From positions 1-63,201 of the forward strand of contig CANRHL010000002.1 in NCBI GenBank assembly GCA_947630405.1: a DNA stretch of 63,201 nt, given 5' to 3'. The DNA is from an uncultured Clostridia bacterium. GTDB taxonomy: Bacteria; Bacillota; Clostridia; Christensenellales; UBA1242. The notes beneath the pieces are model-generated. The model saw only the letters and a list, made by a program, of their open reading frames with translations, searched no databases and had not been told where the DNA came from. Position numbers and translations under genes: made by a program. Shown here piece after piece: positions 47,645 to 57,977 of the stretch (within the stretch, counting starts at the first letter, position 1; each line of letters begins with the position of its first letter).

Positions 47645-47668
47645 TAGGGCGTAACGCCTTATTTTTTT
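47645..47668. terminator. bidirectional terminator between tsf and the convergent orphan
   Basis: TAGGGCG / CGCCTTA stem flanked by an A-run upstream and a T-run downstream. Confidence 0.6.
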
Positions 47669-48197
47669 ATATGTTTTTTGTGTCACCAATCATTGATTTA
47701 TACATTGCCTTTAATTGTTTATAAAGATATCTTTTGCCGCGTTTAAAATGAACATCTTTTGCAAGTTGCCTAACACATTCAACATCTCCTGTCGATCTAA
47801 GAGCCTCAAACAAACCATCCAACCACCAAGTGTCATATTCAATAAATTTGGCTATGTATTTAGGATTTTTTAATTCACAAACATAATCTTTAACTTCAAT
47901 GATAGTAAAGCCGGGGATAGCACCGCTATTATAATCTTTATGCAAATTTATCATAAATTCATCATCTACACCATTTTCGGTAATATATGCAATTCTTTCA
48001 TTTAATAATGCGTGAGCCTCTTCTTTTGTATAATTTCTTTTCCCATAACTTGACTCCCACAAGTCATTGCTATTATCTGCATAATAAGTAGCCCCAGCAA
48101 AAACAAAGTTGCCAGACTTATCCTTTTCACCAATTTGTAAATTATTTAAATAATTTTGAATTAATTTATTTAACAGACCAACATTTTCTGCTTCCAT
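47667..48197 (-). CDS. hypothetical protein (orphan, antisense orientation, in the slot where pyrH is expected)
   Basis: 176 aa from ATG 48197 (AAGGAG SD). The track start at 48245 overlaps the promoter. No family recognised. Confidence 0.5.
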   Translation of the reverse strand: MEAENVGLLNKLIQNYLNNLQIGEKDKSGNFVFAGATYYADNSNDLWESSYGKRNYTKEEAHALLNERIAYITENGVDDEFMINLHKDYNSGAIPGFTIIEVKDYVCELKNPKYIAKFIEYDTWWLDGLFEALRSTGDVECVRQLAKDVHFKRGKRYLYKQLKAMYKSMIGDTKNI

Positions 48198-48216
48198 AAA
48201 TTCACTCCTTATGCAT

Positions 48217-48245
48217 AATTTAACATAATATTGCAAATTTGTCAA
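48217..48245 (-). promoter_or_regulatory. sigma-A type promoter of the minus-strand orphan
   Basis: On the minus strand: TTGACA (48245-48240), 17 nt, TGtTAAATT with -10 at 48222-48217. Confidence 0.55.
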
Positions 48246-49623: not shown

Positions 49624-50526
49624 ATGAAAAAAAGGTTATTAACTAGCATCTGTATTGTTCTAGTTGTGGCGGCCATGGTTGCCGCTAAGTTTTTGCCGCA
49701 AACAATTGGTGACTATATCTTTGATATTTTCATTTTAATTTTAACCTTTATTGCAAGTTTTGAAATGTGCATGTTGTTAGAAGAGCGGAAGAAAAATGTT
49801 AATAGAATATTAGTTTGTTTTTATGGTGTATTTAACTATATTGTTCTTTTAATATTTAGAAATTTAGTGCCATACTATTTCACTTTGCTTATTGAGTTGG
49901 GCTTTTTAGTGATATACTTTATAGCAACACTTTTAATTGAAATTTTAATTGAAACAAAAAAGCCACTAAAAGTTAAGTTTGCCATTAGCCTTAACACATT
50001 AATTGCATGTTTTTATCCAGCATTTTTGTTCACAACATTTTTGTTCATAAACCACATTGATGGCTATGCCGGAGTTAATCATTTTTCAGTTGTTTTAATT
50101 TTGCTTGTAATTTTAATAACATTTTTAACCGACACTTTCGCTTACATTTTTGGTTCACTCATAAAAGGGCCTAAACTTGCGCCAAAAATTAGTCCAAATA
50201 AGCGCATAAGCGGGGCAATAGGCGGGCTTGTTGGCGGCATTGCCGGGGCAATGATTGTGTATGTAATTTTCTATTTCATACCGCAGACGACCGTTATTTT
50301 AACCACCTTTTCGCTTTCTTGGTGGAAGTTCCTTTTAATTGGTCTCGTTGGCTCAGTTTTAGGGCAGATTGGCGATTTGGTTGAAAGCAAAATAAAACGC
50401 CTTGCCGGAGTTAAAGATAGCGGCAATATGTTCCCAGGGCACGGCGGAATGCTAGATAGAATTGATGCCATGATTTTTGTTGTTACATTTATTGCAATTG
50501 TTGGCTTAATTCTTGTGGCAATTTAG
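49624..50526 (+). CDS. cdsA: phosphatidate cytidylyltransferase
   Basis: 300 aa, polytopic membrane protein. [24 protein letters not shown] signature. Confidence 0.92.
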
Positions 50527-50564
50527 AATAAATTTAAAAATCTATTATTATAATTAAGGTATAA

Positions 50565-51737
50565 ATGTCTAGTTTTTTAAGTGTATCGTCCGTTTTTAGT
50601 TATATTGGCTATATTTTGCTAGCCATTGTTGTTTTACTAGTTATGGTGTTGATACACGAGCTAGGACACTATACAGCCGGTAAGATACTAAAATTTAAGA
50701 TTAATGAATTTAGCATAGGCTTTGGCCCAAAAATAATTCAAAAAACCAAAAAAAATGGTGAAAAAATAACCCTGCGCGCCTTCCCGTTGGGTGGTTATTG
50801 TGCCTTTGATGGAGAGGATGAGGACGGCAAAAACAATCCGCAAGCCTTTAACAATCAAAAGCCGTGGAAAAGGTTAATTGTGCTATTTTGTGGCGCATTT
50901 TTTAACTTTTTAAGTGCCATAATATTTTCTTTTATTTTACTCATGGCAAATGGCTATGATTTAGTGCAAGTAAAAACGGTGGGCGAAAACTCAATTAACT
51001 ATGAAATAATTCAAGAAAATGACGTTATTTATGGCATTGAAAATCATAACATCGATTTTGTAGCCGACCAATATTTAACCACAATAATAACAAATAGTGT
51101 AACAGAAAAATATAAAACTTACACTCCAAAAAACGAGGGCGGAAAAATCAGTGAAGAACTTAAAAACCATAGTTTCACACAAGATAACAAAACCTTTTAT
51201 TTAGACGAAAAGGATTTAACCTTTAATATTCGCCGAAACAACACACCACAGGCAATTTCCGGGCATATTAATGTGGTTTATAACGAGGCGGGCGAGTGTG
51301 TTGGCTGGTCACTTTTATCAAGTTATGAAGAAGATAATAGCGAATTTGCCACGCAAACATACAAATACACTTTTGTGGAAGCACTAACTCAAGCCGTGCC
51401 GTTTACTTTTAAATGGGCTTGGAAGGTGTTGGTTGTTCTATTCCGGTTAATAACGGGCAAAATGTCAATTAAAGCACTTGGTGGGCCGGTAACCACAATA
51501 AAGATGATAGCAACATCCACGCAAACAAACGCACTTAACTTGTTAGTTTTGTTGCCGGCAATTGCTGCCAATTTAGCAGTGTTTAACTTGCTACCAATTC
51601 CGGCGCTCGACGGCTTAGAGTGGATACGCAAAAAGCCTGTTAAACGCGAAGTCGTGAATATGATAAACAACATCGGGCTGCTTGTCTTGCTCGGCTTTGT
51701 TATTGTAGTTGACGTTTTGCAATTCGTAATACATTAA
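50565..51737 (+). CDS. rseP: site-2 (RIP) zinc metalloprotease RseP/RasP
   Basis: 390 aa. HELGHY and NLLPIPALDG motifs, with a degenerate PDZ region in between. Confidence 0.85.
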   Translation: MSSFLSVSSVFSYIGYILLAIVVLLVMVLIHELGHYTAGKILKFKINEFSIGFGPKIIQKTKKNGEKITLRAFPLGGYCAFDGEDEDGKNNPQAFNNQKPWKRLIVLFCGAFFNFLSAIIFSFILLMANGYDLVQVKTVGENSINYEIIQENDVIYGIENHNIDFVADQYLTTIITNSVTEKYKTYTPKNEGGKISEELKNHSFTQDNKTFYLDEKDLTFNIRRNNTPQAISGHINVVYNEAGECVGWSLLSSYEEDNSEFATQTYKYTFVEALTQAVPFTFKWAWKVLVVLFRLITGKMSIKALGGPVTTIKMIATSTQTNALNLLVLLPAIAANLAVFNLLPIPALDGLEWIRKKPVKREVVNMINNIGLLVLLGFVIVVDVLQFVIH

Positions 51738-51761
51738 GGGTTGACACCCTTAATTTTTTTT
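51734..51761 (+). terminator. rho-independent terminator enclosing the next -35 box
   Basis: TTAAGGGT / ACCCTTAA 8-bp stem followed by T8. TTGACA 51741-51746 spans the 5' arm end, the loop and the start of the 3' arm. Confidence 0.65.
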
Positions 51762-51769
51762 GTTATAAT
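51741..51769 (+). promoter_or_regulatory. sigma-A type promoter, leaderless geometry
   Basis: TTGACA 51741-51746, 17 nt, TGtTATAAT with -10 at 51764-51769, then 6 nt and ATG 51776. Confidence 0.6.
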
Positions 51770-51775
51770 ATAGGT

Positions 51776-53290
51776 ATGGAAAAAATTGAGTTTTTATCAA
51801 CTCTATATCCTGGGTTAAAGTTTAAGGACGCAGAATACATTGAAAAGACAAACACTTGCGTTGCCAATTTTTTATTTAACCCTGAAAGTTTTAAGCCAAG
51901 CGAAGAAAATCGCAAGGTAATTTTAGAAAAATTAACCGAAATTATAGGCAATTTTGTAAACATTGACCTTAACTTTATTTCCTGCCCGCTAGATAAACGC
52001 GCCATTGCCAACCACACATACACCACAATTGTAAATACCTTTCCTGCCATAAGCAAAAACTTTAATTATGATGATATTTCGGTTGAAATCAACCAAATGA
52101 GTGTAAATTTAAAACTAAAACTATCGCCGTCTGTTTATGAGTACGCCGTTGGCTTAAATAGGCAAAGTTTGGTGGCGGAGAAGTTAAAAGAGAGCTTTTT
52201 GGCGGACTTTAACGTCTCATTTGAAAAGAAAGATGACATTGTTACAACTGAAACAAGTTACATAGAAAAAAATATAGAACTCATGTCCAGCATTAAGGAG
52301 GCCGAAGAAAAAACCATCTATGCACTAAGCGAAATTACCAATATAATCGGCAATAACGATTATTCTGTGGCAATCGACTTTACAAAGGTTAATTCGGTTG
52401 TTGAAAATGTGGTTATTTGCGGCGAAGTTACAAATATTTCTAAGCGAACATACACAAGAAAGTCATCAAAAGCCGAATCAAAGGAAATTGAGCGCACTTA
52501 TTACTCGTTCACACTAAAGCTAAACAACAAATTTTTATATTGCTCAATCTTTCCAAGACAAGCGGACGAAGTTAAAGGGGATTTAATTGAAGCAGGCATG
52601 AATGTGTGCTGCTTTGGCTCGTTTAGAGAGTTTAACAATAAACTCAACTTCACGGCAAATTCAATTGCGCGTTGCAAATTCACGAGCGAAGAAATAAAAT
52701 CCGGCTTTAAGCACGTCAATGAAGAATATCACACAGTTTTCCCACAAAAATATGTCGATTATGAGCAGGGCGGGTTGTTTGATGAAGAAAAGTCTTTCCC
52801 AGGGAATTTTGTGGTGTTTGACCTTGAAACCACTGGGCTTGAACCAACAAAGGATGAAATTATTGAAATTGGTGCATGCAAGGTTGTAAATGGCAGAATA
52901 GACGAGACTTTTTCAACGTTCGTTAAACCAACGCACCACATTCCAAAAGAAATAACCACGCTAACGGGCATAACTGACGATATGGTTAAAGATGCGCCAA
53001 CAATCAATTATGTTTTGCCAGATTTTTATAAGTTCTGCTATAATTCAACCATGGTGGCGCACAACACTCAGTTTGATATTGGTTTTATTTACGCGGCGGC
53101 AAAAAAACTATCTTATAATTTTTCTAATCCGCTAATGGACACGCTTGAAATGAGCCACACGAAATTGCCGGGTTTAAAAAACTATAAACTTGGCACAATT
53201 GTAGATAAACTTAACATTGTGTTAGATAATGCCCACCGGGCAATAAACGATGCAACTGCAACGGCAAAAGTTTTTATAAAATTAATGTAA
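51776..53290 (+). CDS. PolC-like N-terminal/OB/3'-5' exonuclease protein with no PHP or polymerase domains
   Basis: 504 aa. The C-terminus carries DEDDh exonuclease motifs FVVFDLETTGL, MVAHNTQFDIGF and HRAINDATATAKVF, very close to the PolC-embedded exonuclease. Residues ~205-300 look like an OB fold. Located in the polC slot between rseP and rimP. Confidence 0.7.
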   Translation: MEKIEFLSTLYPGLKFKDAEYIEKTNTCVANFLFNPESFKPSEENRKVILEKLTEIIGNFVNIDLNFISCPLDKRAIANHTYTTIVNTFPAISKNFNYDDISVEINQMSVNLKLKLSPSVYEYAVGLNRQSLVAEKLKESFLADFNVSFEKKDDIVTTETSYIEKNIELMSSIKEAEEKTIYALSEITNIIGNNDYSVAIDFTKVNSVVENVVICGEVTNISKRTYTRKSSKAESKEIERTYYSFTLKLNNKFLYCSIFPRQADEVKGDLIEAGMNVCCFGSFREFNNKLNFTANSIARCKFTSEEIKSGFKHVNEEYHTVFPQKYVDYEQGGLFDEEKSFPGNFVVFDLETTGLEPTKDEIIEIGACKVVNGRIDETFSTFVKPTHHIPKEITTLTGITDDMVKDAPTINYVLPDFYKFCYNSTMVAHNTQFDIGFIYAAAKKLSYNFSNPLMDTLEMSHTKLPGLKNYKLGTIVDKLNIVLDNAHRAINDATATAKVFIKLM

Positions 53291-53296
53291 AAACTA

Positions 53297-53325
53297 TTGA
53301 TTTATTATATTTGATGTGTTATAAT
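53297..53325 (+). promoter_or_regulatory. sigma-A type promoter of the rimP-nusA-infB operon
   Basis: TTGATT 53297-53302, 17 nt, TATAAT 53320-53325. Confidence 0.6.
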
Positions 53326-53337
53326 ATAAGTATTGTA

Positions 53338-53370
53338 AGGAGTGGCGGTGCCACTCCTAACTTGGTTTTT
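53338..53370 (+). promoter_or_regulatory. leader hairpin plus U-tract (candidate attenuator) upstream of rimP-nusA
   Basis: AGGAGTGGC / GCCACTCCT 9-bp stem (53338-53358), then AACTTGG and T5. The 5' arm contains a decoy AAGGAG. Confidence 0.45.
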
Positions 53371-53381
53371 ATAGGAGAAAT

Positions 53382-53834
53382 ATGAAAATATCAGATTTGG
53401 TTTATGAAAAAATATCGCCATTATTTAAGGACGATATCAAATTAGTTGAGGTGGAGTACTTAAAAAAGGCAGACGGCATGCACCTAACCGTTTACATTGA
53501 TAAACTTGGCGGTGTGTCAATTGACGATTGCGTTAAAATTAATGATTTAATTGACCCCGTTATTGACGAACTTAACCCAACACAAGATAAGCCTTTTACG
53601 CTAGACGTTTCCTCATATGGGCTAGATAAGCCACTAAAGTTCGATTGGCAGTTCAAGAAGTACACAAACGAACTTGTGGACGTTAAGTTATATCAAAAAT
53701 TAAACGGCAAAAAAGCGTTCACCGCAAAGCTTATTGCCCATAATGAAAAGTCCACTCAATTTCAACTAGACAATGAAGTTTTAACCATATCTAATGTCGA
53801 TATTGCGTCTATTACACCATATATAGAGTTTTAA
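53382..53834 (+). CDS. rimP: ribosome maturation factor RimP
   Basis: 150 aa. Position immediately upstream of nusA. L.VYID pattern. Confidence 0.85.
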   Translation: MKISDLVYEKISPLFKDDIKLVEVEYLKKADGMHLTVYIDKLGGVSIDDCVKINDLIDPVIDELNPTQDKPFTLDVSSYGLDKPLKFDWQFKKYTNELVDVKLYQKLNGKKAFTAKLIAHNEKSTQFQLDNEVLTISNVDIASITPYIEF

Positions 53835-55233: not shown

Positions 55234-55516
55234 TTTTATAGGTTTTGCAAAAAAAGCAAATAAAATAGTGATTGGTCAAAGCAGTTTAAAGCGCTACAAT
55301 AAACAAATATATTTAATTATGGTTTGTTCCACCGCAAGTGGCAACTTAAAAGATTTGGCAAAAAATTTAGCAAACAAGCATAATTGTGAATATATTGAAA
55401 CTAAAATTTCACTAGAAGAACTATCTAAATTATCTGGCATTAAAATTTTAGGCATAACAGATGAAAATCTGGCAAAGGGGATTATATTAAATAAGGAGAG
55501 TATTAGTATTGGCTAA
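55217..55516 (+). CDS. ylxQ: L7Ae-family RNA-binding protein YlxQ
   Basis: 99 aa. Conserved slot between ylxR and infB. GFAKKANKIVIG motif. Confidence 0.75.
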   Translation: MEKIISFIGFAKKANKIVIGQSSLKRYNKQIYLIMVCSTASGNLKDLAKNLANKHNCEYIETKISLEELSKLSGIKILGITDENLAKGIILNKESISIG

Positions 55517-57977
55517 CGAACAAAAACAAGATTTTAACAAATCAATTAAAGAACTTCAGTCCATGGTTAAAGATAATTTGTTTATGTCTTTGGCTGAAAA
55601 GTTCCACAATTTAAAAATTGAAATGGGTGCACTTGTAAGGCAAGTTAAAGAAAAGGAAAACGAACTCTTACTTGGAGAGGGCAAACCAAAGGTTAAGGAA
55701 GAAACTCCTGAAGTTGTTTCCACGCCAAAAGTTGAAGTAAAACCACAAGAAATAGAAACAAAAGCCATCAAACCTCAACAACAAGAAAAGCCTAAAAATG
55801 TGCAGCCAAATAGTCAATTTAAAAAGCCAAACTCTCAATATAATAATCAATATAACAACAATCAATTTAACAATAAAAAGCCATTTAATAATAACTTTAA
55901 GCAAAACAACCAACAACCAAATGGCAACAAAAACTTAAATTTCAAACCTAATAACAACAAGCCAAATCAAAAACCTTTTAATAAGGATAATAAGCAACGC
56001 CCAGCAATCAACTATGCTCAGCCAATTATTGTTGCAAGCCCGGCAAGGAACTTTGCCAACAAGAAAAAAGAAACTCATTTTGAAGAAAAACATCAATATT
56101 CAAAGCGTGATTTGTTAAAGCGCGGCATGATTGAAGAAGAAGAGAGCAATAGAGATATTGTCAGAAAAAATAGAGTAAAGAAGAAGGAAAATCCAACCCC
56201 TGTTGTATCAGATAAGCCACAAGGCCCAGCAATAATTAACACCGATAACATAACAGTTAAGTTGTTGTCCGAGGCAAGCGGCAAGCCGGTTAGCGAAATT
56301 ATTAAGAAATTTATGTTGCTTGGCATGATGGTAACCATCAACTCGCAAATTGATTTTAGTACGGCAGAACTTGTTATGAGTGATATGGGTGTTGAACTTA
56401 TCCAAAAACTTGATAAAACCAGCGAGGAAAAACTTAAAGACGTCCAGAAGAATATCCGTTCTTATAGTGATAGTGATGCAATGGTTCGCCCACCAATCGT
56501 AACAGTTATGGGCCATGTTGATCACGGCAAAACAAGTTTATTGGATTATATTAGAAAAACTAAAGTTGCCATGGGCGAAGCCGGCGGCATAACGCAAGCA
56601 ATTGGCGCTTATAGGGTTATGGTTGGCGATAAATACATCACATTTATCGACACTCCGGGGCACGAAGCGTTTACTGCAATGCGCGCAAGGGGTGCAAGCG
56701 TAACCGACATTGCAATTTTGATTGTCGCAGCGGACGATGGCATAATGCCACAAACGGTTGAGGCAATTAACCACATAAAATCTGCCAACATTCCAATGAT
56801 TGTGGCAATAAACAAAATGGATAAACCGCAAGCCAATCCAGACAAAGTTATGCAACAACTTGCCGAACACAATGTTTTGCCAGAAGCTTGGGGCGGCGAT
56901 GCCATAATTTGCAAAATTTCAGCAAAAACGGGCGAAGGAATAGACAAATTGCTTGAAACAATCTTGCTAGTTGCCGATGTTCAAGGCTTAAAAGCAAATC
57001 CTAAAGTGCCAGCAATTGGCACAATAATGGAGGCAAGGCTGGATAAGGGCAAAGGCCCTATTGCGTCTTTAATTGTGCTTGATGGCTCACTCCATGTTGG
57101 CGATACAATTGTTTCTGGCACAAGCCTATGCAAAGTTAAAGCAATGATAGACGAAAATAACAAGGCAGTTAAAGTTGCAACACCTTCAATGCCGGTAACC
57201 GTTTTAGGCTTTAACGAAGTGCCTGTTGCGGGCGAAAGTTTCACCGTTGTTGACGAAAAATTATCTAAACAAATCGTTGAAGAGCGCCTTGCTAAGAAAA
57301 AGGCAGATTTAATTAAAAATAGCGGCGGCAATACGCTTGAAGATTTAATTCAAAAGACAAGTGAAAAAGATGTTAAAATCTTAAATATCATATTAAAAAC
57401 TGATGTCAACGGCTCGCTTGAAGCAATTAAGTCGTCAATTATGAAACTTGTGAATGACGAAGTTAAAATTAACATTATTCATAGTGGCGTTGGTGCGGTT
57501 AGTGAAAGCGATTTAATTTTAGCAAATGCGTCAAATGCAATGGTAATTGCCTTCAACATCGGGCAGGATAGCAAGGTTAAAACACTTGCTGAACGAATGA
57601 AAATTAAGATATATTCATATAAAATCATTTATGAATTAATTGACGAAATTGAACGCGTTGTTAAGGGCATGAAAGAGCCTAAATATGAAGAAGTATATCT
57701 TGGCAAAGCCGAAGTTATTGCCGTGTTTAAACTCACAAATGCCGGCATTGTTGCAGGTTGCATGGTTAGAGATGGCAAACTTGTTCGTGGCGAACATGTT
57801 AGAATTTATCGTGGCGACGATATGCTGATTGAAACTGAAATTAAATCTCTAAAAATTGTTAAAGACGATGTTAAAGAAGCCGGCAAGGATAGGGAATGCG
57901 GCGTTAAAACAAGTTTTGACGAAGTTCAAGTTGGCGATAGAATTGAGTGTTATTCTCTTAAAAGGATTGAAGAATAA
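55509..57977 (+). CDS. infB: translation initiation factor IF-2
   Basis: 822 aa. GHVDHGKTSLLD, DTPGHEAF and NKMD GTPase motifs. TTG start. N/Q/K/P-rich low-complexity N-terminal region. Confidence 0.96.
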   Translation: MANEQKQDFNKSIKELQSMVKDNLFMSLAEKFHNLKIEMGALVRQVKEKENELLLGEGKPKVKEETPEVVSTPKVEVKPQEIETKAIKPQQQEKPKNVQPNSQFKKPNSQYNNQYNNNQFNNKKPFNNNFKQNNQQPNGNKNLNFKPNNNKPNQKPFNKDNKQRPAINYAQPIIVASPARNFANKKKETHFEEKHQYSKRDLLKRGMIEEEESNRDIVRKNRVKKKENPTPVVSDKPQGPAIINTDNITVKLLSEASGKPVSEIIKKFMLLGMMVTINSQIDFSTAELVMSDMGVELIQKLDKTSEEKLKDVQKNIRSYSDSDAMVRPPIVTVMGHVDHGKTSLLDYIRKTKVAMGEAGGITQAIGAYRVMVGDKYITFIDTPGHEAFTAMRARGASVTDIAILIVAADDGIMPQTVEAINHIKSANIPMIVAINKMDKPQANPDKVMQQLAEHNVLPEAWGGDAIICKISAKTGEGIDKLLETILLVADVQGLKANPKVPAIGTIMEARLDKGKGPIASLIVLDGSLHVGDTIVSGTSLCKVKAMIDENNKAVKVATPSMPVTVLGFNEVPVAGESFTVVDEKLSKQIVEERLAKKKADLIKNSGGNTLEDLIQKTSEKDVKILNIILKTDVNGSLEAIKSSIMKLVNDEVKINIIHSGVGAVSESDLILANASNAMVIAFNIGQDSKVKTLAERMKIKIYSYKIIYELIDEIERVVKGMKEPKYEEVYLGKAEVIAVFKLTNAGIVAGCMVRDGKLVRGEHVRIYRGDDMLIETEIKSLKIVKDDVKEAGKDRECGVKTSFDEVQVGDRIECYSLKRIEE

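Follow-up and report, generated by a model that had tools for sequence, protein, structure and literature searches.

What does the polC slot of a clostridial chromosome encode when the gene within it carries no polymerase? PolC, with its built-in proofreader, is treated as defining and essential in Bacillota replication, and is an antibiotic target. In the stretch of DNA analysed here (63,201 nucleotides, hereafter called the window), the interval between rseP and rimP, which is the usual clostridial polC position, contains an open reading frame (ORF) for a protein of 504 amino acids. Judging from this ORF and its relatives, which come from a sizeable group of uncultured Clostridia of the gut, the built-in proofreader of PolC seems to have turned into a separate replication protein.

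Locus and transcript signals

The features of the locus are as follows.
50565..51737, + strand: rseP (site-2 protease; Pfam Peptidase_M50, E 4e-52), the 5′ border of the polC slot and the same neighbour as in relatives
51733..51754, + strand: terminator-like hairpin at the rseP end (9-bp stem, then a T run), overlapping the −35 box of the gene that follows
51741..51769, + strand: sigma-70-type promoter-like site, TTGACA-17-TATAAT with an upstream TG (12/12 consensus match)
51776..53290, + strand: the whole ORF, whose product is the PolC-derived stand-alone protein, with N-terminal domain, OB fold, linker motif, and DEDDh exonuclease
53297-53325, + strand: rimP promoter-like site (context, outside the protein)
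53338-53358, + strand: GC-rich hairpin with a T-rich tail, in the rimP leader (context, outside the protein)
53382..53834, + strand: rimP (Pfam RimP_N and RimP C-terminal domain), the 3′ border of the polC slot

The ORF begins with ATG and is open for 504 residues with zero internal stops, and both this and its placement between rseP and rimP, as read in the first-pass annotation, agree with the ORF map and the Pfam matches of the neighbours. Beyond rseP, the genes on the 5′ side are tsf, frr, uppS, and cdsA, while rimP is followed by nusA, ylxR, ylxQ, infB, and rbfA. Neither polC nor dnaE is present within the 63 kb window. An Rfam scan of the window returned no match, and PADLOC detected a generic DEDDh domain only, which gives no hint of a defence system.

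The ORF had been credited with a promoter of its own, and a rimP promoter had been placed directly after it. The latter is matched by the promoter-like site at 53297-53325. The former exists as a perfect sequence, but its −10 box ends 6 nt from the ATG and a Shine-Dalgarno sequence is absent, so that the transcript from this site would be leaderless or nearly so. A similar promoter-like site, with a leader of 11 nt, occurs in a 68%-identical relative (L001). In contrast, the site is absent from distant relatives, in which the gene directly adjoins the preceding one or overlaps with it, and the promoter is thus not a family feature.

The exonuclease domain is of the PolC type

The C-terminal part of the protein contains the following elements.
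52805..53287, + strand: DEDDh 3′-5′ exonuclease domain, aa 344-504 (RNase_T, E 1e-42)
52808-52840, + strand: Exo I, FVVFDLETTGL, aa 345-355
53051-53086, + strand: Exo II, MVAHNTQFDIGF, aa 426-437
53234-53275, + strand: Exo III, HRAINDATATAKVF, aa 487-500

As judged from its motifs, this domain is an intact DEDDh exonuclease, closest to those of PolC, as the first reading of the three motifs had suggested. Pfam RNase_T (PF00929) covers aa 346-500 with 146.7 bits against a cut-off of 24, and the best NCBIfam match of the protein is PolC, at model positions 423-584 of 1445. Residues D349, E351, D434, H487, and D492 are invariant among 104 diverse family members (104/104). The identity to the exonucleases of genuine clostridial PolCs is 44-54%. 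Consistently, when the family profile was searched against PDB sequences with hmmsearch, it matched the T. maritima PolC exonuclease with E 8e-64, and PolC 9qpc was also matched. The cut-off of the dnaQ-family domain model TIGR00573 is passed as well (122.6 vs 71.5 bits).

The remaining parts of the polymerase are missing. Pfam gave no PHP match (PF02811) in the 504-aa protein, and neither the Pol3 core (palm, fingers, and thumb; PF07733 and PF17657) nor HhH was matched by Pfam or NCBIfam outside aa 343-504. The PolC equivalog models score 184.8 bits vs 873 (NF001688) and 168.4 vs 1043 (TIGR01405), in the exonuclease region only. The early remark that both PHP halves and the polymerase core are absent is borne out, and the ORF indeed stops after Exo III, although it does so 4 residues past the Exo III motif string, and not 8 as originally counted.

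The N-terminal region corresponds to the PolC N-terminal domain and OB fold

What precedes the exonuclease? The N-terminal region comprises four segments.
51776..51985, + strand: N-terminal subdomain 1, aa 1-70, small alpha/beta (helix, beta-beta-alpha-beta; AlphaFold pLDDT ~90; hhalign)
51995..52228, + strand: N-terminal subdomain 2, aa 74-151, alpha-beta-beta-alpha-alpha-beta, type II KH-like (AlphaFold; hhalign 96.6%)
52238..52315, + strand: low-confidence acidic/helical connector, aa 155-180, the most variable part
52316..52690, + strand: pre-OB segment (G192 motif) and OB fold, aa 181-305 (hhalign 99.1%, E 6e-19)

We compared an alignment of 104 family sequences with an alignment of 68 PolC N-terminal sequences, using hhalign. 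Over 275 collinear columns, residues 10-303 align with the PolC N-terminal domain and OB fold, with a probability of 99.5% and E 1e-22. The N-terminal domain alone aligns at 96.6% (E 6e-10, 138 columns), and the OB fold alone aligns with the PolC OB at 99.1% (E 6e-19), while the reversed and cross-domain controls reached 0.1-0.5%. On the evidence of these profiles, the N-terminal domain and the OB fold are homologous to those of PolC, which answers the early doubt that the first 300 residues might bear no profile or structural similarity to PolC, and supports the remark that the first ~200 residues sit where the PolC N-terminal domains would be.

The predicted structure points in the same direction. 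In the AlphaFold model, the N-terminal region forms two small alpha/beta modules, the second of which has type II KH topology, with fold matches to the NusA KH domains and PrgH ring motifs. The pLDDT of the connector stays below 50 in the whole-protein model, and is ~67-76 when the N-terminal region is modelled by itself. When the whole model was searched with Foldseek, the top PDB match was PolC 9qpc, with 385 aligned columns. A fold search with the N-terminal model yielded KH, ring-building-motif, and BON-like modules, and no PolC N-terminal structure; none seems to have been deposited. The PolC N-terminal domain itself is predicted to consist of two KH-type subdomains, and is poorly conserved (PMC3919608).

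Because of this poor conservation, null results of single-sequence scans are uninformative, and the profile-profile comparison was used instead. Indeed, neither the whole protein nor any of ten divergent N-terminal fragments matched the PolC N-terminal domain in Pfam and NCBIfam scans, and the fragments matched generic OB models only (XseA, YhaM, and RecG). The best 150 matches of the N-terminal profile among 1.84 billion representatives were all family members, with no 1400-aa PolC, indicating that HMM-to-sequence sensitivity is too low to link the family with PolC. In the PDB sequences, hmmsearch with the family profile gave a weak and at most suggestive collinear match to the N-terminal region of PolC 9qpc (13 bits, E 0.24) and a match to the PolC 3f2b OB (E 0.021). 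The assignment of residues ~205-300 to the PolC OB stands at the family level only: the OB of the single 504-aa protein is sub-threshold against Pfam (E 0.14), while relatives match the OB models PF01336, XseA, YhaM, and RecG.

A clamp-binding-type motif in the linker

The OB fold and the exonuclease are joined by a linker of ~38 residues, which is predicted to be disordered and has no H-x-H motif. Two short motifs lie within it.
52727..52753, + strand: linker motif Y318-x-x-[VI]-x-P323-x-x-[YF]326, identified by conservation in the predicted disordered segment
52766..52780, + strand: putative beta-clamp-binding motif Q331-G-G-L-F335 (consensus Q-x-[NDS]-[LMFI]-[FL])

Both are conserved. In the first, Y is found in 98/104 members, V or I in 99/104, P in 100/104, and Y or F in 85/104. 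In the second, Q is retained in 102 of the 104 sequences, N/D/S at +2 in 89, L/M/F/I at +3 in 99, and F/L at +4 in 98, while the flanking positions vary. The motif lies in linker sequence with pLDDT values below 50. The form agrees with the clamp motifs predicted in C-family polymerases, such as QGNLF, QINLF, and QSGLF (PMC3919608, supplementary table). Thus read, the linker contains a newly seen motif of the beta-clamp-binding type at aa 331-335, and the protein is a probable sliding-clamp binder; the clamp interaction guessed at in the first-pass annotation gains direct support. PolC has its clamp motif at the extreme C-terminus (PMC3919608). The 504-aa protein ends in ...AKVFIKLM, and has no clamp-type motif there.

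Family spread, synteny, and selection

Is this architecture a peculiarity of one contig? Orthologs of ~500 aa with the same architecture and context, as envisaged at the outset, do exist: the architecture is found in at least 263 sequence clusters (50% identity) of uncultured Clostridia. Among the best 150 of these 263 clusters, full-length members have ~500-545 aa, and the remainder are fragments or a shorter variant. In some lineages, a variant of ~310 aa consists of the N-terminal domain and OB only, and part of the selected function may hence be independent of the exonuclease. The number of carrier species from a genome scan with the exonuclease motif is at least that of the species listed. 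Carriers include the assembly GCA_947623795.1 and the contigs DBFWLO010000009.1 (Ca. Scatosoma sp.), DVHB01000042.1 (Ca. Coproplasma stercoripullorum), CAJFHH010000001.1 (Ca. Neoclostridium roslinense), CAJTYR010000001.1, and CALVNY010000017.1.

The synteny is equally broad. At every locus with a readable upstream flank, the upstream gene is rseP or ispG, and rimP-nusA follow directly on the 3′ side in nearly all of ~36 loci from diverse lineages, down to ~28% identity. The exceptions are three loci with foreign genes before rimP and one lineage with nusA directly downstream. Large ORFs adjoining the family gene at two loci (L037 and L018) were considered as polymerases and rejected; they encode a surface-repeat protein and a GGDEF/EAL protein.

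The sequence data indicate that the family is under strong purifying selection. Between the gene and that of a relative with 83% identity, pN amounts to 0.10 and pS to 0.79, with all domains constrained; pN and pS are given in place of dN/dS because the synonymous sites are saturated. No frameshifts or internal stops were found in the full-length members examined in detail; in a few cluster members, a single frameshift divides the gene into two ORFs. Neither a full polC in the slot of relatives carrying the gene nor relaxed selection, which had been named as contrary outcomes, was seen; the catalytic residues are invariant, and pN is far below pS. Automatic annotations name the family 'PolC-type DNA polymerase III', '3′-5′ exoribonuclease', or 'hypothetical', and surveys of PolC by name could therefore mis-score carrier genomes.

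Alternative explanations

Where, then, is the polymerase? One alternative is that the polymerase half (PHP-Pol3-HhH, ~900-1000 aa) is encoded elsewhere, and that the two polypeptides form a PolC-like enzyme. Removal of the exonuclease is tolerated in the natural Exo-less PolCs of Clostridia and Negativicutes (PMC3919608; L011), the retained parts are exactly those missing from an Exo-less, N-terminally trimmed core, and the N-terminal domain and OB are strongly conserved, which suggests continued service to a polymerase. However, a polymerase core is missing up to a distance of 10 kb from the family gene in the ~36 loci, which counts against such a division since recent fission would leave the halves adjacent. 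In a tblastn search of 91 loci with the PolC core and the DnaE1 N-terminus, only genuine PolC loci were matched. Moreover, a protein whose partner has a C-terminal clamp motif has no obvious need for its own clamp-binding-type motif, and no PHP remnant is left through which the exonuclease could again be accommodated in a PHP domain. When fragments of Exo-less PolC were used as queries, the matches were PolCs of Syntrophomonadaceae, and no core-only PolC family appeared, although the search was not aimed at one; match length in the two homology searches judged was at most 1.75 times that of the query, and short queries thus seem unable to reach full-length PolC. We consider a divided PolC to be unlikely.

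A second alternative places a full-length PolC at another locus, and makes the 504-aa protein a PolC-derived paralogue that repairs or processes DNA ends, gaps, or stalled forks at the clamp, in place of replicative proofreading. Many repair proteins carry clamp-binding motifs. The combination of an OB fold and a nuclease is a common layout in repair and RNA processing (YhaM and XseA), and the exonuclease roles of ExoX and DinG would offer a comparison. Several stand-alone DnaQ-like exonucleases exist per bacterial genome, and most are non-replicative (PMC12926913). In every lineage examined, however, this gene is located exactly in the polC slot and polC is missing there, whereas a paralogue would be expected beside polC or far from it. 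Elsewhere in Clostridia, the slot is taken by genuine PolC (the Thermosyntropha control and loci L035, L065, L068, L070, L087, and L088), and the family gene and an in-slot PolC never occur together among the loci read. The PolC-specific N-terminal domain, furthermore, has been kept under selection. An accessory exonuclease of this kind is rather improbable.

Finally, a non-functional polC remnant in decay, or a mis-assembly or deletion in one metagenome bin, is conceivable for a metagenome-derived contig with an architecture of PolC minus two segments, but is extremely improbable, because independent assemblies from several sources, numbering in the hundreds, show the same architecture and length, with invariant catalytic residues, low pN, conserved linker motifs, and intact frames, and because pairwise identities of 27-83% exclude copies of one contaminating sequence.

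Proposed origin and function

The reading that we prefer, with a probability of about 0.6, is that the 504-aa protein stems from the N-terminal half of PolC, is functional as a stand-alone protein, was derived in situ, and acts as a clamp-tethered proofreader in trans. This agrees with one of the two options in the first-pass annotation, an expressed accessory or trans-acting proofreader, as the invariant catalytic residues and the purifying selection argue. Its other suggestion, the fossil of two in-frame deletions in polC, fares differently in its two parts: the conservation speaks against a fossil, while the loss of the PHP and polymerase segments is the likely history.

Origin: An ancestral polC, located between rseP or ispG and rimP, would have lost the N-terminal PHP segment between the OB and Exo. 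Everything after Exo, i.e., the C-terminal half of PHP, the palm, fingers, thumb, and HhH, would also have been lost. The clamp-type motif, Q-x-[NDS]-[LM]-F, may have been gained or unmasked in the disordered OB-Exo linker.

Tethering: The retained PolC OB fold would bind single-stranded DNA, and the sliding clamp, possibly together with the clamp loader, would hold the protein at the replication fork. The PolC N-terminal domain has been proposed to contact the clamp loader (PMC3919608).

Proofreading: At the fork, the exonuclease would remove misincorporated 3′ nucleotides in trans for the remaining C-family polymerase, most likely DnaE1. In function, the protein would thereby be the counterpart of E. 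coli epsilon, having evolved by another route. The DnaE1 enzymes of Clostridia have the characteristics of a self-sufficient replicase, and are the sole type in some of these bacteria (PMC3919608). In B. subtilis, the PolC exonuclease can proofread for DnaE in trans, according to work cited in PMC12926913. Its binding to the clamp and to the clamp loader, and its proofreading in trans, are functions that we infer.

Three observations are counted on the other side. The protein has no C-terminal polymerase-binding tail of the E. coli epsilon type, with no DnaE1 contact indicated, and its OB fold is of a generic class, which the OB models of YhaM, XseA, and RecG also match. The third is the ~310-aa variant that consists of the N-terminal domain and OB only.

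On a larger scale, we tentatively suggest, at somewhat less than even odds, that a deep Bacillota lineage, the uncultured Christensenellales-like gut Clostridia, gave up PolC and uses its N-terminal half as a proofreading subunit of DnaE1, tethered by the clamp and possibly the clamp loader. If true, this would be a case of an epsilon-like subunit that arose independently, and in a traceable way, from an exonuclease acting in cis.

Why does this matter? In a widespread group of gut Clostridia, the polC locus holds only the non-polymerase half of PolC, under strong selection. If the PolC polymerase is absent from the carriers, they would represent a natural switch from a PolC and DnaE1 replisome to a DnaE1 replisome. 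The change of a cis-acting proofreader into a trans-acting subunit would then bear on the origin of epsilon-type subunits. The function of the N-terminal domain and OB would also be independent of the polymerase, and the PolC N-terminal domain, which is little understood, would become directly testable.

Comparison with known systems

The N-terminal DnaQ-like domain of DinG and the stand-alone DEDDh proteins of Bacillota (e.g., PRK06807) share 32-36% identity with the exonuclease and give strong fold matches. In contrast to the 504-aa protein, they have a helicase partner or none, lack the PolC N-terminal domain and OB, and are encoded outside the polC slot.

The Exo-less PolCs of Syntrophomonadaceae and Negativicutes, found in the same slot (L011), indicate that the exonuclease and the polymerase can be uncoupled in Clostridia. 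They are the reciprocal product, with the N-terminal domain, OB, PHP, Pol3, and HhH but without Exo (~1205-1222 aa); no link between them and the present family was found.

The 504-aa protein resembles the N-terminal half of PolC in having two KH-like subdomains, a pre-OB segment, and an OB fold in the same order. Its DEDDh exonuclease is most similar to that of PolC, and the chromosomal position and strand, from rseP/ispG to rimP, are shared. Unlike PolC, it lacks the ~90-aa N-terminal PHP piece between the OB and Exo, the C-terminal PHP piece, and the Pol3 palm, fingers, thumb, and HhH. Moreover, its clamp-type motif is internal, in the OB-Exo linker, while that of PolC is C-terminal.

As in DnaQ/epsilon of the E. 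coli type, the DEDDh proofreading-type exonuclease stands alone, and its fold matches include epsilon structures. The epsilon equivalog models nevertheless remain below their cut-offs (TIGR01406, 99.7 vs 222.7; NF004316, 98.6 vs 196). E. coli epsilon carries a clamp-binding motif beside its exonuclease domain, downstream of it, whereas the clamp-type motif of the 504-aa protein is upstream. With its end so close to Exo III, the latter also has no C-terminal PHP-binding extension, and instead possesses a 340-aa PolC-type N-terminal region, consisting of the N-terminal domain and OB. The two differ in descent as well: the 504-aa protein derives from PolC, and epsilon belongs to the proteobacterial dnaQ lineage.

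A PolC-like protein between rseP and rimP

As the first-pass annotation had described, the window encodes a 504-aa protein in a reading frame free of internal stops, between rseP and rimP:

50565..51737, rseP (Peptidase_M50), upstream neighbour
51776..53290, + strand, ATG start, gene for the 504-aa protein
53382..53834, rimP, downstream neighbour

The genes tsf, frr, uppS and cdsA lie further upstream, and nusA, ylxR, ylxQ, infB and rbfA lie beyond rimP. The remainder is ordinary chromosomal core (pta, ackA, priA, pcrA, ligA, smc, ffh, dprA, topA, truB and spoIIIA), and neither polC nor dnaE is present in the 63 kb window. The sole Pfam match of the 504-aa protein is RNase_T (residues 346-500, E 1e-42). 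The top NCBIfam model is PolC, matched only at model positions 423-584 of 1445, scoring 185 bits where the cut-off is 873. Neither PHP nor Pol3 was matched in the Pfam and NCBIfam scans, which bears out the claim that the protein lacks the PHP and polymerase regions. Its exonuclease best matches that of T. maritima PolC (E 8e-64), and is 44-54% identical to the exonucleases of genuine clostridial PolCs.

Homology of the N-terminal region to PolC

Simple scans of the N-terminal fragments returned generic OB models only, and no PolC N-terminal match was obtained in the Pfam and NCBIfam scans of the whole protein and of ten divergent N-terminal fragments. Of the profile comparisons proposed in the first-pass annotation, those with RNase_T and a generic OB fold gave matches, and that with the PolC N-terminal domain gave none. 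With a domain as poorly conserved as the N-terminal one of PolC, such a failure is to be expected; a dedicated study reports missing it in 7% of PolCs (PMC3919608). We aligned 68 PolC N-terminal sequences: five from the supplementary table of PMC3919608, one fragment from the 9qpc alignment, and 62 N-terminal fragments found by a profile of the first five. In hhalign, residues 11-303 of the family match the PolC N-terminal domain and OB over 275 collinear columns (99.5%, E 1e-22). The N-terminal domain alone matches over 138 columns (96.6%, E 6e-10), and the pre-OB segment with the OB reaches 99.1% (E 6e-19). The controls are clean, with 0.5% for reversed PolC alignments and 0.1-0.3% for cross-domain pairings. 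The proposed PolC likeness of the N-terminal ~300 aa, including the layout of the OB, is therefore supported.

The predicted structure leads to the same protein. Four parts are ordered in the full model (pLDDT 78), with two disordered segments between them. The top PDB fold match of this model is the PolC cryo-EM structure 9qpc (E 8e-20), aligned over 385 columns; the exonuclease domain has less than half that length. In the N-terminal model (pLDDT 89), a beta-beta-alpha-beta module comes first and an alpha-beta-beta-alpha-alpha-beta module second. The second module has a predicted type II KH topology, and the fold matches of the model are NusA KH domains and similar small modules. These comparisons show that all three folded parts of the protein are homologous to PolC.

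A separate set of proteins (P0349, 541 aa, on a contig of 669,639 bp; P0351; P0401; P0369; P0347) represents PolC N-terminal pieces encoded as separate ORFs of 467-619 aa, with the N-terminal domain, the OB and the first part of PHP and Pol3, and without the exonuclease. Their contigs are long, so that truncation by contig ends does not account for them; a frameshift, recoding or a genuine split of an Exo-less polC gene could.

Family, selection and linker motifs

A search of 5.8 billion proteins, clustered at the 90% level, yielded at least 120 related clusters, 65-83% identical over the full length, with the shared terminus ...AKVFIKLM. Their members have 500-533 aa, with one exception of 794 aa: P0112, a cluster of 11 member sequences in which RseP (Peptidase_M50) is fused in-frame to the protein. 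The two neighbouring genes may be truly fused, or the product may be an artefact of read-through or of a frameshift. When 1.84 billion representatives (50% identity clusters) were searched with a profile of the N-terminal 338 residues, 263 proteins matched at E <= 1e-3, of which 120 reached E <= 1e-10. Of the 263, the best 150 are proteins of ~500-545 aa with the same layout, their fragments, or a shorter ~310-aa variant; none of these 150 is a 1400-aa PolC. Orthologs of ~500 aa with the same architecture and context thus occur in many clusters and loci.

The catalytic residues D349, E351, D434, H487 and D492 are invariant among 104 aligned members, a diverse set with 27-67% identity to the window protein. 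Against the closest relative used for substitution counts (GCA_947623795.1, 83% amino acid identity), pS is 0.79, with synonymous sites saturated, and pN is 0.10: 0.10 in the N-terminal domain, 0.14 in the OB, 0.08 in the linker and 0.06 in the exonuclease. Purifying selection acts on the gene over its entire length. With the active-site residues invariant and the whole ORF selected, a pseudogene or artefact is excluded, and the suggested polC fossil is disfavoured.

The segment between the OB and the exonuclease (residues 306-343) is predicted to be disordered and is mostly variable, except for two short conserved motifs. One is Y318-x-x-[VI]-x-P323-x-x-[YF]. The other, Q331-x-[NDS]-[LMFI]-[FL]335 (QGGLF in the window protein), has Q in 102 of the 104 sequences, L/M/F/I at +3 in 99 and F/L at +4 in 98. 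It has the form of a bacterial beta-clamp-binding pentapeptide, and is a putative clamp motif; the predicted clamp motifs QGNLF, QINLF, QSGLF and QLSLF of C-family polymerases have the same form (PMC3919608). The PolC clamp motif is located at the extreme C-terminus (PMC3919608), an end that the 504-aa protein lacks; therefore, its motif would have been gained or selected after or during truncation.

Every source with a name is an uncultured Clostridia or Eubacteriales genome assembled from a gut or rumen metagenome, and the sources annotate the protein under inconsistent names. Among the species representatives are Ca. Scatosoma sp., Ca. Coproplasma stercoripullorum, Ca. Neoclostridium roslinense, "Christensenellaceae bacterium" and "uncultured Christensenella sp." In the NCBI taxonomy, all three Candidatus carriers fall within Clostridia, one of them in Eubacteriales incertae sedis and the other two as incertae sedis; we take these taxa to belong to the GTDB order Christensenellales.

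A short variant without the exonuclease

At least nine clusters (50% identity) of ~293-325 aa match the N-terminal profile only to the OB end. In other clusters, some short members are plain frameshift splits, such as the 293-aa and 247-aa members of a 530-aa cluster, whose contigs have identical lengths. The ~310-aa variant, from two clusters, was located on three contigs:

L092, 1988..2920
L093, 434..1369
L094, 1452..2387

It comprises the PolC-like N-terminal domain and OB, without the linker motifs or the exonuclease. The gene directly follows rseP in L092 and L094, and in L093 the upstream gene is lost at the contig end. On the 3' side, L092 and L093 have a convergent sigma-70 gene, preceded in L092 by one unannotated convergent ORF, and the convergent gene of L094 is cut off; neither an exonuclease nor rimP comes next in the three contigs. 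This suggests that the N-terminal domain and OB are kept on their own in some lineages, which would point to a function beyond carrying the exonuclease.

Occupancy of the polC slot

The gene lies after rseP or ispG and before rimP-nusA in lineages with proteins at 68, 37, 35, 35, 29 and ~28% identity, the most distant (~28%) having the full clostridial order cdsA-dxr-rseP-ispG, the gene itself, and rimP-nusA-ylxR-ylxQ-infB. Scanning the GTDB species, with one genome for each, brought in at least ~29 carrier loci and at least ~51 genuine PolC loci; tblastn queries against the loci were window proteins, a DnaE1 N-terminus and the core of a PolC. Among the matches listed, a polymerase core is present at every PolC locus, and no PolC-core or DnaE match lies within 10 kb at any carrier locus. 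PolC loci with both flanks visible (L035, L065, L068, L070, L087, L088) read cdsA-rseP-PolC-rimP-nusA-infB, and the cultured control Thermosyntropha lipolytica reads rseP-ispG-proS-mgtC-PolC-rimP.

In carrier loci, rimP-nusA-infB directly follows the gene, except in L005/L006, one lineage in which nusA adjoins it directly, and in L018, L032 and L037, which have foreign genes in between. About ten carrier loci have neither cdsA nor rseP within 10 kb upstream; L018 and L037, checked directly, have ispG immediately 5' of the gene. Among the loci read, relatives carry no full polC in the slot, and the gene was never seen together with an in-slot PolC. Since the carrier and PolC loci share the slot and the control agrees, the gene is the positional replacement of polC.

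Two of the inserts between the gene and rimP interrupt an otherwise very stable operon junction:

L037, 11264..14782, 1172-aa InlB-B-repeat/BspA-LRR surface protein
L018, 11403..14588, - strand, 1060-aa EAL-Cache-GGDEF protein

The normal place of dxr and ispG is between cdsA and polC. They are missing there in the window (49624..51776) and in closer relatives, and present at the slot in the more distant carriers L003, L018 and L037; proS is not in the slot of any carrier seen.

Expression signals and neighbouring features

The promoter sequence claimed for the gene is confirmed as a perfect TTGACA-17-TATAAT match with TG:

51741-51769, promoter-like site

It overlaps a terminator-like hairpin of rseP (51733..51754), with the -35 box inside the hairpin. 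The -10 box ends 6 nt 5' of the ATG and no Shine-Dalgarno sequence precedes the ATG, so that a transcript from this site may have little or no leader. L001, the 68%-identical relative, has the site too, there with an 11-nt leader. Distant relatives lack it, and their gene abuts or overlaps the upstream gene.

The rimP leader (53297..53381) contains a promoter-like site (10/12 match, with TG), followed before the rimP start by a 9-bp GC-rich hairpin with a T-rich tail. The hairpin has no Rfam match, and looks like an attenuator or terminator for the rimP-nusA-infB operon. A 192-aa ORF (47667..48245, - strand) without a match in Pfam or PADLOC lies between tsf and frr, the usual place of pyrH, which is present there in L003 and in L011, a locus with an Exo-less PolC in the slot; GC around the ORF drops to ~30%. 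The N-terminal region of IF-2 (infB, 55509..57977) contains a long asparagine-/glutamine-rich low-complexity stretch at ~aa 95-165 (...QYNNQYNNNQFNNKKPFNNNFKQNNQQPNGNKNLNFKPNNNKPNQ...).

Proposed origin and role

We propose that polC lost its PHP and polymerase segments in situ, giving rise to the 504-aa protein. The sliding clamp would recruit the product, perhaps together with the clamp loader through the N-terminal domain, as proposed for PolC, and the clamp-bound protein would proofread in trans. The client polymerase is likely DnaE1, because clostridial DnaE1 bears every hallmark of a self-sufficient replicase, some Clostridia have no other C-family polymerase (PMC3919608), and the B. subtilis PolC exonuclease is reported to proofread in trans for DnaE (cited in PMC12926913).

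Derivation in situ destroys the resident polC, so the PolC polymerase would be lost from the lineage unless the gene had been duplicated earlier. We weight this loss highest among the outcomes. Two others are live: a split PolC, in which the protein and a polymerase core encoded elsewhere form a two-gene enzyme, and a clamp-associated repair exonuclease alongside a relocated PolC.

Comparison with known systems

Without the polymerase core, PHP and the C-terminal clamp motif, and with a failing equivalog score, the protein is by its sequence not a PolC. It belongs to the DnaQ-like DEDDh superfamily, and differs from E. coli-type epsilon because it lacks the polymerase-binding tail and has a different descent. 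Neither its N-terminal region nor its architecture is represented by a model in Pfam or NCBIfam. The portions of the 2013 (PMC3919608) and 2026 surveys of bacterial polymerases consulted here do not mention such a protein; both surveys chose proteins by polymerase domains, and the latter covers complete genomes only. Our full-text literature searches found no description of one either. As a stand-alone proofreading-type exonuclease, the protein has a PolC-derived architecture and a genomic role that are both new.
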